Made by a program: the position numbers and the translations under genes. Shown here one piece after another: positions 42,366 to 46,533 of a DNA stretch of 64,000 nucleotides. Below the pieces are notes generated by a model. The model saw nothing but the letters and a program-made list of their open reading frames with translations. It was not told the origin of the DNA and made no database searches. How positions within the stretch are numbered: the first letter of the stretch is position 1; each line of letters opens with the position of its first letter. This DNA is from Thermoplasmata archaeon. GTDB taxonomy: Archaea; Thermoplasmatota; Thermoplasmata; GCA-020350865. The stretch lies in the NCBI GenBank assembly GCA_020348445.1, contig CP070751.1, positions 692,421-756,420 of the forward strand. Reading direction: 5' to 3'.

Positions 42366-42908
42366 TCAATCAGAAGACAAAATTTCCTCACCCAATGTGA
42401 AGAACCCCAGTTCAACATTCTTACCAGTTTTTGCGCTGGAAAGATAGGCATACGAGCGTTTGAATTTAGAGCAGAATTTATCAAGCTCTTTAATATTTAT
42501 TTCGGCTTCCTTCTTCAAATCGCATTTATTGGCGAGAAAAACTATAGGAACCTCGCCTGAAATGGAATACACGGCCTTGACCCAATCTTCAAGATACAAC
42601 ATGGTGTCGCGTCTTGTGATGTCGCAGACAGCCACAACGCCCTGACATCCGAAAAAATACGCATTCTGAAGCATCTGGCGAAAACCCTGCTGGCCCATGA
42701 TATCCCAGACGAGCATCCTAATATTTGTTGAGGTGCGTCTTCTTGGATGCTTGAGGGTCACCTCTTTTTTTGTGATTTTGGTGCCTAGGGTGGTGATGTA
42801 CTTATCAGAGAACTGATCGAAGACGAATCGTTTGATCAAACTGGTTTTACCTACCCCTCCTTCCCCTACGAGGCATATTTTAAAGGAGTAGTCCACTTCG
42901 TTGTTCAT
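42366..42908 (-). CDS. Rab-like small GTPase (Ras superfamily), copy 1
   Basis: G1 GEGGVGKTS, switch I FSDKYITTLG, G3 WDIMGQ, G4 NKCD, G5 SAKTG; start moved to ATG 42908 (GGGGGG SD). Confidence 0.93.
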   Translation of the reverse strand: MNNEVDYSFKICLVGEGGVGKTSLIKRFVFDQFSDKYITTLGTKITKKEVTLKHPRRRTSTNIRMLVWDIMGQQGFRQMLQNAYFFGCQGVVAVCDITRRDTMLYLEDWVKAVYSISGEVPIVFLANKCDLKKEAEINIKELDKFCSKFKRSYAYLSSAKTGKNVELGFFTLGEEILSSD

Positions 42909-43083
42909 CTCTTTCCCCCCCAAGAAATGGTTCTAAATAGGCATTTCAATGGCCTTTAGGGGGATTGCCTTCATCGTTTATAAAACCTTTCCAAAATCTC
43001 ATAAACCATCAAAAACATATAAAATAATGGAATAAAAACCCTTAATAATAGTAAAATATATTCGTTAATTCCGGGGAGTTCAG

Positions 43084-43575
43084 ATGAATAGGACAGAATT
43101 GATGGCAGAAGGCATGTCCCTCGTCGAAAGGGGGAAGTACAAGGAGGCTGTAGAGATTTTTAATGAGATATTAACAGAAGATCCCCAGGATGTTGAAGCC
43201 TGGATCAACAAAGGTTGTGCTTTGCTGTACTTGGAAAAGCCCAGGGAATCCCTACACTGTACAAACAAAGCATTGGAAATCGATTTAAACAACACCATAG
43301 CTTTAAATAACAAAGGAATTGCCCTATTTCGTATAAACGATTTTGAAGGTGCAGAAGACGCCTTTAATAAAACTTTAGAAATAGATCCGAAGTACGCAGA
43401 AGCCTGGTACAACAAAGCCTGTTTAGCATCCGAGCAAAAAAAAGTCTATGAAGCCTTAAGAAATCTTGAAAAGGCCTTGAGTCTTGATAGAAACAGATTC
43501 CTAACCCACGCAAAGATTGACAGACATCTTGACAACATCCGAAATGAAGCGAGATTCAAGGAACTTGTGGATTGA
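43084..43575 (+). CDS. Tetratricopeptide repeat protein (3-4 TPRs plus C-terminal capping helices)
   Basis: EAWINKGCALLYLEKPRESL, IALNNKGIALFRINDFEGAE, EAWYNKACLASEQKKVYEAL..ALSLD..D..LDNIRNEARFKELV. Confidence 0.92.
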   Translation: MNRTELMAEGMSLVERGKYKEAVEIFNEILTEDPQDVEAWINKGCALLYLEKPRESLHCTNKALEIDLNNTIALNNKGIALFRINDFEGAEDAFNKTLEIDPKYAEAWYNKACLASEQKKVYEALRNLEKALSLDRNRFLTHAKIDRHLDNIRNEARFKELVD

Positions 43576-43594
43576 TTGAAAAGGCGGGTTCTTT

Positions 43595-44254
43595 ATGCCT
43601 GGGATGAAATATTTCAGACGGAAGATATGCTTACTTGGTGATGCCGCAGTGGGAAAAACCAGCCTTATCAGAAGATACGTGGAGGACAAATTCGACGATA
43701 AATATGTGGTAACACTTGGAACAAAGGTGACAATGAGGGAACAGGTTATTCAAGACCCAAACAGTAATCAACCAATGAATATGACCCTGATGATTTGGGA
43801 CATATTGGGACAAAGGGAGTACAAGCGGCTTCAAACGAGCTTTTACAGGGGAGCGAACGGAGCTTTAGTTGTGGTAGACATTACAAGAAAAGAGACATTA
43901 GATAGTTTACACGGCTGGATACTATCCCTTTTCAATAGTGTGGGAAAAGTACCTATTCTCATCCTATTAAATAAAAACGATCTTACAGAGCAAACCGCGA
44001 TAAAATCCGAGGATATGGATGATGCGATCAAAAAATATGAGACATCGTATCTACTCACCAGTGCCAAGACAGGAGAAAATGTCGATTTAGCCTTTAAGAA
44101 AATGAGTGAGATGCTGTTATTTAGGGAGCAAAGTAAAGGATCACAAGAAGGGAATTCTAAATCTGACGAAATGAAACAATTTGCAGGCCCAGAAACCAAG
44201 ATTCCATCAGAAACTGGAGCTACCAGCGATAAAAACGACAATGATTCAGCTTGA
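43595..44254 (+). CDS. Rab-like small GTPase (Ras superfamily), copy 2, with ~40-aa polar C-terminal tail
   Basis: G1 GDAAVGKTS, switch I FDDKYVVTLG, G3 WDILGQ, FYRGA, VVDIT, G4 NKND, G5 SAKTG. Confidence 0.93.
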   Translation: MPGMKYFRRKICLLGDAAVGKTSLIRRYVEDKFDDKYVVTLGTKVTMREQVIQDPNSNQPMNMTLMIWDILGQREYKRLQTSFYRGANGALVVVDITRKETLDSLHGWILSLFNSVGKVPILILLNKNDLTEQTAIKSEDMDDAIKKYETSYLLTSAKTGENVDLAFKKMSEMLLFREQSKGSQEGNSKSDEMKQFAGPETKIPSETGATSDKNDNDSA

Positions 44255-44317
44255 GCAAAGGCCGATATGCTGTTTGAGATAGATAACCGGTACAACCAGG
44301 GTATCTGGAGTGAAGCC

Positions 44318-45622
44318 ATGATTGAAGCCGATAACATAGTAAAAAGGTATCCTATAAGAGGGGAAGGGTACAACTGGCGAAAAGCATTTATTTCCGCCAT
44401 CAAAAGGAGAAAGCAGGATGAATTAACGGCATTGTACAATGTGAGCCTGGATGTGCAAAAAAGTGAAATAGTGGGAATTTTAGGGCCCAACGGTGCAGGG
44501 AAGACCACCTTGATCAAGATTTTAGCAGGTCTCCTGGTTCCAGATTCAGGAAAAGCCAGTGTTAATTATTACGATGTGATCAAAAATAGAAAACAGGTGC
44601 GAACGTCCCTCAATCTGCTCAGAAGCGGTGGATGGGTAATGTTCGACTACAAGCTCACAGTATACAACAATCTGAAATACTGGGGTATTGTACAGGGATT
44701 GGGCTGGAATGAAATCAAACCGAGGATCGAAGAGGTCCTGGAAATCGTGAGATTGAAGGATAAAATCAACGAATATCCTGAAAACCTTTCTGCGGGGATG
44801 AGGCAGAAGATGTGCCTTGCGCTTTGCCTTCTCTCCGACAGGCCTATATATCTTCTGGACGAGCCAACCGCGAACATAGACCCGTACTCTGCAAATTTTA
44901 TTCGTGAGTTCGTACGGGATGAACTGGCAGGCAACGGAAAAACCGTTCTTCTGGCCACACATAACCTATGGGAGGCTGAGATGATATGCGACAGAATAGC
45001 CATATTGCTCAAAGGTTGTGTGGTGCTGTTCGACAAAACCGAGGTAATAAAAGGAAGGCGTGAGGGTGGATATATTCTGATAAACGTTTTGAACCTTTCC
45101 GATGATCTGGTGGAGGATCTTTCTTGCCTGGATTTTGTTAGATCTGTATTCCCAAGTTGTCTTCGCGACTCAAAAGGTGAGGACCAGTATCAGCTCGAGA
45201 TCCATGGGGATGTGGAGGAACATCTGCAGGAACTTCTTGAGGTTTGTTTTGGTCATACCGAAGTGGGGAGCATGGAAACCAAAGATCCCTCCCTAAACGA
45301 CATCTTCATGGAGATGATGGAAAGGATAGATTCAGATAAGGCGCAGATTTCAGATAGGTATAAACTCTACAAGAATGCGTTGATCGAGGCTTATGGGGAT
45401 TACGGTGTAATAATCAATGAAAAAAAGGAGTTGCTAAGGGAGATCAAAGAGAGACTCGATATCTCGGACGGGGAGCATAAACAGATAGATGCAATGGTCC
45501 AAGAGGAAATGAAACCAAAGTGGAAGAAAAAGGCAAGGGAGGATAAAAAAGCAGCAAAGCATCTTGACCCAGCAGTTGCTGAGCTGATAAAACTAAAGTC
45601 CGAGCTTGAGGAAGAGGACTAG
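44318..45622 (+). CDS. ABC-2 type transporter ATP-binding protein with extra C-terminal helical domain
   Basis: Walker A GPNGAGKTT, signature LSAGMRQK, Walker B LLDEPT, H-loop ATHN. Start probably ATG 44318 (GGAGTGA SD); track start is 44267. Confidence 0.93.
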   Translation: MIEADNIVKRYPIRGEGYNWRKAFISAIKRRKQDELTALYNVSLDVQKSEIVGILGPNGAGKTTLIKILAGLLVPDSGKASVNYYDVIKNRKQVRTSLNLLRSGGWVMFDYKLTVYNNLKYWGIVQGLGWNEIKPRIEEVLEIVRLKDKINEYPENLSAGMRQKMCLALCLLSDRPIYLLDEPTANIDPYSANFIREFVRDELAGNGKTVLLATHNLWEAEMICDRIAILLKGCVVLFDKTEVIKGRREGGYILINVLNLSDDLVEDLSCLDFVRSVFPSCLRDSKGEDQYQLEIHGDVEEHLQELLEVCFGHTEVGSMETKDPSLNDIFMEMMERIDSDKAQISDRYKLYKNALIEAYGDYGVIINEKKELLREIKERLDISDGEHKQIDAMVQEEMKPKWKKKAREDKKAAKHLDPAVAELIKLKSELEEED

Positions 45623-45669: not shown

Positions 45670-46533
45670 ATGGCGGGTGCCAAGCGGAAAATTGGGAAGG
45701 TCAAGCACGGCCTCAACTTCAAAGAAACCATGCATGTAGTTGGCAGCTACATGGCCAAGAATTTCCGGCTTTGGTATCGATTCAAGGTGAGCTTTTTTTT
45801 CACGCTTATTTCCATGGTCGTGGCCATAGCAATATGGTATTTCATGAATAGGGTGCTGGAAATCGGTTTTATGGACGATTACTTCTCCTTCGTGCTAATA
45901 GGTATCGTGATAAACCAGTACGTGCTTACTACATTATCTACCTATCTTGAATCATTAAAGGAACTGTATTGGTCAAACCAGCTGGAATTCTATCTAACGT
46001 CACCATCCAGACTTAAAACCTTCTTTTTGTCATCATTAACCTGGACGTATACATATGCTACAATAAATGCCCTGCTTTATTTCGCTATTGGCATATTCAT
46101 ATTTGATGCCAACCTGATTGTAAATCCCGAGGCGATTCTGATCATTCCCATGCTGTTTCTTTTGATAGTAGGACTTTCGGGCTTTGGGCTTATTTCAGCC
46201 AGTATGTTTCTTCTTGTGGATGCAAAAGGGGAGATAGAGCCCATAAGCTGGGGGATTTCCACGCTCACTCTCCTGGTCTCAGGTGTTGTTTTTCCGTTCG
46301 AGGAGTTTCTCAATATATTCCCGCCCTTATATTATGTGGCCATTGTGCTACCCCAGACCTGGGCAATTCACGGTATCAGGGGATTGCTTCAGGGTGGGGG
46401 CATAGGAAATGCCATTCCCATAATGGGTATACTGGTGATATTTGCATTGATACTTTTTCCTCTTGGTGTTGCCATGTTCAGATTCGGGATAAGAAAGGGG
46501 GAGAGGGTAGGAAGCTTGGCCAAATGGGCGTGA
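45670..46533 (+). CDS. ABC-2 type transporter permease
   Basis: Six hydrophobic segments; YFSFVLIG, LE.YLTSP, LVSGVVFP, LPQTWAIHGIRGLL. Confidence 0.92.
   Translation: MAGAKRKIGKVKHGLNFKETMHVVGSYMAKNFRLWYRFKVSFFFTLISMVVAIAIWYFMNRVLEIGFMDDYFSFVLIGIVINQYVLTTLSTYLESLKELYWSNQLEFYLTSPSRLKTFFLSSLTWTYTYATINALLYFAIGIFIFDANLIVNPEAILIIPMLFLLIVGLSGFGLISASMFLLVDAKGEIEPISWGISTLTLLVSGVVFPFEEFLNIFPPLYYVAIVLPQTWAIHGIRGLLQGGGIGNAIPIMGILVIFALILFPLGVAMFRFGIRKGERVGSLAKWA

Follow-up and report, generated by a model that had tools for sequence, protein, structure and literature searches.

A Rab-like small GTPase and a tetratricopeptide repeat protein head a predicted ABC-2 transporter and surface-protein operon in one genus of Thermoplasmata

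A 64,000-nucleotide stretch of a Thermoplasmata archaeon genome (contig CP070751.1, positions 692,421 to 756,420; hereafter the window) carries what appears, from comparison of related loci, to be a conserved unit of five co-directional genes. These encode a tetratricopeptide repeat (TPR) protein, a Rab-like small GTPase (gt2), the ATPase of an ABC-2-type ATP-binding cassette (ABC) transporter, an ABC-2 permease and a giant surface protein with a NosD-type head. A second Rab-like GTPase gene, gt1, lies upstream on the opposite strand. A first-pass annotation of the window placed the gt1, TPR and gt2 open reading frames (ORFs) and their strands correctly, and proposed that the TPR protein serves a paired GTPase switch as adaptor or effector, or as GTPase-activating protein (GAP) or guanine nucleotide exchange factor (GEF). 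The link between TPR and gt2 stands; a pairing with gt1 is not supported, and the predicted operon that TPR and gt2 head, with its transporter and giant-protein genes, had been overlooked. Because the linkage of TPR to gt2 is constant and that of gt1 is not, gt2 is the only one of the two GTPases for which the TPR protein is a plausible partner. By a slight preference, we read it as a partner dedicated to gt2 rather than gt1 that most likely serves as effector or adaptor, and we take the two proteins to regulate the ABC-2 and surface-protein machine, perhaps through a tail on the ATPase. Coordinates are collected in table 1.

The linkage is seen at ten loci: the window, G002, G003, G004, L032, L033, L034, L057, L058 and L059. 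At every one of them gt2 follows TPR after a gap of 16–20 nt; in the window it begins 19 nt past the TPR stop codon. The synteny of GTPase, TPR and GTPase genes that had been anticipated is thus upheld for TPR and gt2, whereas gt1 is an inconstant neighbour. Downstream, the order of ABC ATPase, permease and NosD-type protein is kept wherever the sequence extends, and upstream the neighbours vary, being either leuS and gt1 or giant proteins. Gaps within the cassette measure 12–63 nt and no T-run occurs in them. Cassette orthologs of the ATPase are 72–86% identical and those of the permease 71–80%. Synonymous divergence (dS) between the loci is saturated (above 1.5 or not computable), with nonsynonymous divergence (dN) of 0.12–0.34, so that selection, and not recency, maintains the gene order. 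Four genomes have TPR, gt2 and the ABC ATPase with its tail together: the window's own (G000; 5.16 Mb in one contig), G002, G003 and G004. In G001, a closed genome of the same genus, the TPR gene, the gt2 ortholog, the ABC ATPase and the tail are all absent. As a query, the TPR protein finds a single locus among the genome contigs, and five proteins by word-based search; its wider orthologs were reached via gt2.

Both GTPases are Ras superfamily proteins with a single G domain and five G boxes. Each matches PF00071 and exceeds the TIGR00231 small-GTP cut-off, and in Pfam the Ras family outscores Roc, Arf and Gtr1/RagA for both. The best solved relatives across the two are 7ezb, Rab21, Rab1 and Rab11: for gt2 the Thorarchaeota Rab 7ezb comes first (E 6e-31), ahead of eukaryotic Rabs, and for gt1 Rab21 and Rab1 do. 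The gt1 ORF extends to a TTG at 42923 (42366–42923, 185 aa), and the start codon is most likely the ATG at 42908. Motifs were checked in an alignment of 12 orthologs, eight of gt2 and four of gt1. Invariant in all 12 are G1 (GxxxVGK[TS]), the switch I Thr (TLGTK), G3 (WDI[LM]GQ, with the catalytic Gln), G4 (NKxDL) and G5 (SAKTG), in agreement with the earlier observation that both ORFs keep every G box and the catalytic Gln. A conserved C-terminal Cys, whether as CC, CXC or a CaaX prenylation motif, is absent from this alignment, as had been noted for the window's two genes. The G domain of gt2 spans residues ~1–178 and is followed by a variable polar tail. That tail is ~40 residues long in the window, as first described, and is no fixed trait, since it ranges from ~7 to 40 residues among orthologs and holds no conserved motif. 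Both genes are under purifying selection, with dN/dS of 0.08–0.19 for gt2 where dS is estimable. With all the needed residues in place, its own catalytic Gln included, gt2 is predicted to be a normal GDP/GTP switch.

Several more specific identities were considered and set aside. The five RabF motifs, reportedly those of Pereira-Leal and Seabra in 2000, are IGVDF, KLQIW, RFRSIT, YYRGA and LVYDIT. Judged by eye in the ortholog alignment against these motifs, gt2 reads LGTKV, TLMIW, EYKRLQ, FYRGA and VVVDIT at the same positions and is close at F2, F4 and F5 only; the likeness of FYRGA and VVVDIT to RabF4 and RabF5 had been remarked on before. By the same inspection gt1, with YFFGC and VAVCDIT, is more distant. 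Strict membership of the eukaryotic Rab family was rejected on this incomplete RabF set and the missing prenylation Cys. MglA has TVPGQ or GTPGQ in G3 instead of DxxGQ and is coupled to MglB/roadblock (PMC4316618); here G3 reads WDI[LM]GQ, and no roadblock gene lies at the locus. Group 1 Rup proteins have Ras-like G boxes, lack the catalytic Gln in G3 and neighbour coiled-coil and OmpA-domain proteins (PMC4316618); gt1 and gt2 have the Gln, and TPR and ABC-2 genes are the neighbours instead. Roc/Roco identity is countered by the stand-alone lengths of 180 and 219 aa, a Roc score below the Ras score and the absence of a COR domain. The clustering with MglA or Roc domains that the first-pass annotation had named as grounds for abandoning its proposal is not what G3 motif, scores and neighbours indicate. 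Some homologs are labelled 'Rab family GTPase [Thermoplasmata archaeon]' by NCBI. In the longer homologs of gt2 (the best 35), the fused partners are DUF835, M20 peptidase, STAND and second G domains. DUF835 (PF05763) is fused to many relatives of the gt2-type GTPase (database proteins P0009–P0023) and may be another GTPase-linked signalling domain.

The downstream genes resemble a transporter with a surface-exposed partner. By comparison with orthologs, the probable start codon of the ABC ATPase is the ATG at 44318, and the protein's matches among solved structures are ABCA1/4, 4yer and NosF. Its C-terminal helical extension is found in the cassette orthologs and is missing from paralogs in G020, a genome of another Thermoplasmata family, which stand without TPR and gt2. 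Among 401 genomes of the class, the extension occurs only in the four that also hold TPR and gt2. An AlphaFold2 (AF2) model of the ATPase renders the extension as four helices; its mean predicted local distance difference test score (pLDDT) is a moderate 66.6, and for that reason the model is used only to call the tail helical. The permease is single-copy in G000, and a profile search with it against Protein Data Bank (PDB) sequences gave no match, NosY included. In the giant protein, an N-terminal NosD-type beta-helix is followed by LTD, repeats, fn3, Big_7, a transmembrane segment, an acidic tail and a zinc ribbon; its match to the NosD family TIGR04247 is partial. A NosD or beta-helix protein also follows the permease in G002, G004 and L058, and in truncated form in L057. 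As a separate observation, G020 carries a 50% identical ATPase and permease pair (L052:1345–9324) that is without the tail; its flanks hold a surface protein of 1358 aa (CBM96, disaggregatase repeat, LTD) and a convergent pair of Ras-like GTPases. The position of these GTPases downstream of the ABC and permease paralogs was considered as an independent instance of the association and judged too weak.

Directly observed are the gene identities, the intact catalytic motifs, the gene order kept across loci, the purifying selection and the joint occurrence of cassette and tail. From these we infer physical binding between TPR and gt2, the role of the TPR protein and control over the ABC machine, as follows. 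(i) The soluble four-repeat TPR protein would bind one nucleotide state of gt2. (ii) It would act as an effector or adaptor rather than as a GAP or GEF. (iii) The pair would couple the GTPase switch to the transporter and surface-protein machine, which it probably regulates. (iv) The lineage-specific tail of the ATPase would be the most obvious docking site for the pair. A tentative elaboration, possible and by no means expected, is that the Rab-like GTPase and its TPR adaptor gate or position a NosFY-like ABC-2 transporter through the ATPase tail, and thereby govern how the giant NosD-headed protein is deployed or how active it is.

A number of results weigh against this scheme. Only four of the 401 genomes bear the cassette, all in one genus, so that the co-occurrence of tail, TPR and gt2 counts as one evolutionary event only and lends no independent support. 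None of the 35 longer homologs of gt2 is a TPR–GTPase fusion. Sequence and fold searches with the TPR protein return designed CTPRs, OGT and MamA only, and the protein bears no mark of GTPase binding, being near the TPR consensus with generic matches. At L057 (CP070726.1, GCA_020350865.1; 5711–8548), the ATPase ortholog is interrupted by a single in-frame TAA, which falls on the invariant Lys of the G-K-T/S-V motif, and only 174 aa are left of the NosD-headed giant protein, while the TPR and gt2 orthologs are intact. This hints that the TPR–gt2 pair may be able to outlive the transporter, or else that the sequence or its assembly is in error.

The same locus speaks for the most serious alternative, in which TPR and gt2 form a self-contained pair with an output elsewhere, in polarity, division or signalling, and share a transcript with the ABC genes for co-regulation or by historical accident. 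It is consistent with this that relatives of the ABC ATPase and permease stand without TPR and gt2 in G020 and G005, and that most other GTPase paralogs of G000 have no ABC neighbour. The five-gene order kept in every sufficiently long locus, the restriction of the ATPase tail to genomes with TPR and gt2, and the short cassette gaps free of T-runs all point the other way, and we consider an independent output unlikely.

A further alternative concerns what the TPR protein would do to gt2 on binding it. The 163-aa protein consists of tandem 34-residue helix–turn–helix units, as the TPR repeat family is defined, and the NCBIfam model TPR_END_plus matches its last 56 residues (E 3e-20). Its AF2 model (pLDDT 96.7) has 11 helices, arranged as four repeats and a three-helix C-terminal cap, and Foldseek aligns it with CTPR and OGT at TM-scores of ~0.75–0.84. 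Orthologs are 56–69% identical, with 54 invariant columns; Arg153 and Arg157, both in the cap, are among the invariant residues. These arginines could suit a GAP, GEF or regulator resembling a guanine nucleotide dissociation inhibitor (GDI), and tight gene coupling is typical of GTPase–regulator pairs such as MglA–MglB too. Profile matches at the locus reveal no other candidate regulator: as the first-pass annotation had pointed out, no roadblock/MglB or longin gene adjoins gt1, TPR or gt2, and the six roadblock matches in G000 all lie elsewhere. Against a regulatory role, gt2 carries its own catalytic Gln and the fold search yields only TPRs that are peptide-binding scaffolds. To our knowledge, none of the GAP or GEF families consists of just four TPR repeats. 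On balance a regulator in this sense is improbable, and the effector or adaptor role is preferred. One specific adaptor mode was tried and rejected. An EEVD-type carboxylate clamp, its positions taken from Hop TPR1, was considered for the ATPase C-terminus, which ends in LEEED; on visual inspection the TPR alignment does not preserve the clamp positions, and the G004 ATPase lacks the acidic end.

That gt1 stands apart emerges from both phylogeny and gene neighbourhood. In a tree of 34 G000 paralogs and orthologs, gt1 falls within a nine-member clade of short-form paralogs (SH-like approximate likelihood ratio test, SH-aLRT, 97), and the gt2 orthologs form a clade of their own (SH-aLRT 99) on the opposite side. 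The two genes thus appear to belong to different old paralog clades, and with only 42% identity between them they are not a duplicated pair. Orthologs of gt1 adjoin leuS in G003, in G002 and on the metagenome contig L059. In G004, leuS and the TPR gene are immediate neighbours, with gt1 missing from between them; at L057 and L058 the gene upstream of TPR encodes a giant protein and gt1 is absent there; in G002, gt1 is on a separate contig from TPR, followed by an unrelated ORF. Altogether, of the nine related loci with sequence upstream of TPR, three (G004, L057 and L058) lack gt1 there, and at one more the join is lost to a contig break. By these comparisons gt1 is a variable neighbour that appears to travel with leuS rather than with the TPR cassette. 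The leuS gene itself shows a peculiarity in G001, where matches occur at C1:1715130–1716629 and 842158–843732 (residues 2–501 and 439–963); it may be split or duplicated there, or the assembly may be wrong. The paired switch first proposed, with gt1 and gt2 acting through the TPR protein between them, could draw on the gt1–TPR–gt2 triad in three species (the window, G003 and L059), on purifying selection of both GTPases and on the conserved palindromic TATA element in their shared intergenic region, but is very improbable given the separate clades, the absence of gt1 from three loci, its attachment to leuS and a TPR promoter-like block that is independent of it.

The divergent intergenic region between gt1 and TPR measures 175 bp and contains two conserved promoter-like blocks. 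The first, nearer gt1, contains a palindromic TATA box, TTTATAAA, at 42977–42984, and is unchanged although the synonymous sites of the flanking genes are saturated. It is a candidate gt1 promoter, its direction of use being likewise a matter of prediction. The second includes the ribosome-binding site GGGGAG at 43073–43078, ahead of the TPR ATG at 43084. The pattern A(A/C)AAA(C/A)(C/A)CTTAATA followed by GGAGG or GGGGAG is conserved in six loci, whether or not gt1 lies upstream, with the CTTAATA run ~35–45 nt and the GGAGG-like site 6–8 nt before the TPR start codon. The TPR operon therefore appears to have a promoter-like block of its own, independent of gt1, and gt1 is best described as a separate paralog with its own candidate promoter, found beside the cassette only in some species.

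The locus lies in a genome rich in Ras-family genes. That the host is not an Asgard archaeon, as the first-pass annotation surmised, is borne out by homologs named Thermoplasmata or Methanomassiliicoccales and by the absence of any match to actin or Snf7 in a search of the whole of G000. This genome holds 34–35 Ras-family genes at 25 loci; counts are 26–37 in four other species of the genus and 0–20 in other Thermoplasmata families. Two forms exist, a short one of 180–220 aa and a long one of 277–310 aa. The final ~110 residues of the long form match no Pfam family, and long-form genes often occur in tandem arrays (table 1). TPR genes lie directly beside four of the 25 GTPase loci, against 0.68 expected (p 0.004), an enrichment that favours the proposed TPR–gt2 partnership; the others are STAND–TPR proteins of 522–1146 aa. 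The giant-protein load of G000 is also unusual, with 132 ORFs of at least 1500 aa and 22 of at least 3000 aa, and because of this load the proximity of giant ORFs to GTPase loci exceeds chance only marginally (p 0.03–0.1).

Table 1. Features of the cassette locus and GTPase arrays elsewhere in the genome. Positions are those of the window unless marked G000.
Feature	Position	Strand	Basis
gt1, Rab-like small GTPase, 180 aa	42366–42908	minus	Pfam Ras PF00071 E 1e-32
Conserved block TTCATCGTTTATAAAACC (also given as TTCATCGTTTATAAA)	42970–42987	unassigned	invariant in window, G003 and L059 intergenic regions
TPR-operon promoter-like block	43032–43083	plus	purine-rich run like a TFB recognition element (BRE) + CTTAATA (43034–43047), AAAAACCCTTAATA
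TPR protein, 163 aa, first cassette gene	43084–43575	plus	Pfam TPR_1/TPR_2, TPR_1 E 2e-28
gt2, Rab-like small GTPase, 219 aa	43595–44254	plus	Pfam Ras PF00071 E 2e-36
ABC-2-type (DrrA/ABCA/NosF-like) ATPase	44267–45622	plus	Pfam ABC_tran + DrrA1-3_C; TIGR01188 drrA
ATPase C-terminal helical extension, ~100 residues, acidic end	45314–45619	plus	ortholog comparison
ABC-2 family permease, 287 aa, ~six hydrophobic segments	45670–46533	plus	weak Pfam ABC2_membrane_3 E 3e-4; hydropathy scan
Giant surface protein, 2607 aa	46608–54431	plus	Pfam NosD E 1e-33, Beta_helix, LTD, fn3, Big_7, Zn_ribbon
Tandem array, six long-form Ras-like GTPases	G000 3131528–3137291 (outside window)		
Tandem array, three long-form Ras-like GTPases	G000 3703376–3706222 (outside window)		
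Tandem array, two long-form Ras-like GTPases	G000 5073501–5075465 (outside window)		

Switch families of the Ras/Rab type are usually presented as a hallmark of Asgard archaea and eukaryotes, and here 26–37 members occur per genome in a genus of Thermoplasmata. Almost nothing is known of what archaeal small GTPases control. The locus described here offers a simple case, with a single GTPase, a 163-aa partner and, as candidate output, an ABC-2 transporter with its giant surface protein; its soluble parts are small and should be readily expressed. If the proposed scheme is true, it would give archaeal Rab-like GTPases a first defined effector pathway, and would mean that eukaryote-style switches were recruited to prokaryotic envelope machines outside the lineage leading to eukaryotes. 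The reach of the finding is limited, since the cassette is seen in one genus only. The literature searched describes neither large GTPase families in Thermoplasmata nor a TPR–GTPase–ABC cassette.

Among known systems, the archaeal Rab-like or RasL proteins, a name that reportedly comes also from Klinger in 2016, are the closest relatives of the GTPases themselves. Represented by 7ezb, they share with gt1 and gt2 the single G domain, DxxGQ, the five G boxes, the lack of a prenylation Cys and a short tail. The present case differs in its 34–35 copies per genome in a non-Asgard host and in the fixed TPR neighbour and ABC-2 operon. Single Rab-like genes have been listed for a Thermoplasmatales archaeon and Aciduliprofundum (Surkont and Pereira-Leal 2016, PMC4915359), and Asgard work places such GTPases within a broad 'RasL' cluster (Vargova 2024, 10.1101/2024.02.28.582541). 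The MglA and Rup groups were defined in prokaryotic surveys without TPR neighbours (PMC4316618). TPR and Thermoplasmata terms are absent from the Rab-like/RasL and prokaryotic GTPase surveys consulted, in which the TPR and ABC-2 neighbourhood is undescribed.

The transporter half of the cassette recalls NosDFY of nitrous oxide reductase maturation, with which it shares an ABC ATPase with a DrrA-type C-terminal domain, an ABC-2 permease and a NosD beta-helix protein. NosD docks on NosY. NosF matches the cassette ATPase over residues 39–350, and ABCA and DrrA match better. Further differences are that NosD forms only the head of a 2607-aa protein here, that the permease has no sequence match to NosY, and that NosDFY comes without GTPase or TPR; no nosZ or nosL context is seen at the cassette. 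For the GTPase half, p67phox–Rac provides a eukaryotic TPR effector, in which a short TPR domain binds the GTP form of a Ras-superfamily switch. It shows no specific sequence or fold similarity to the cassette TPR, for which the fold search gave generic TPRs only. The nearest working analogy is probably MglA of Myxococcus xanthus, which acts on the machine of the type IV pilus by way of SgmX, a TPR protein (PMC7519303, PMC7668184). Compared with MglA, gt2 differs in its DxxGQ G3 and in lacking MglB as a neighbour; SgmX is large and has many TPRs, as against a protein of 163 aa here, and its output is a type IV pilus instead of an ABC-2 transporter. Common to both would be the combination of a prokaryotic Ras-like GTPase, a TPR protein and an ATPase-driven surface machine.

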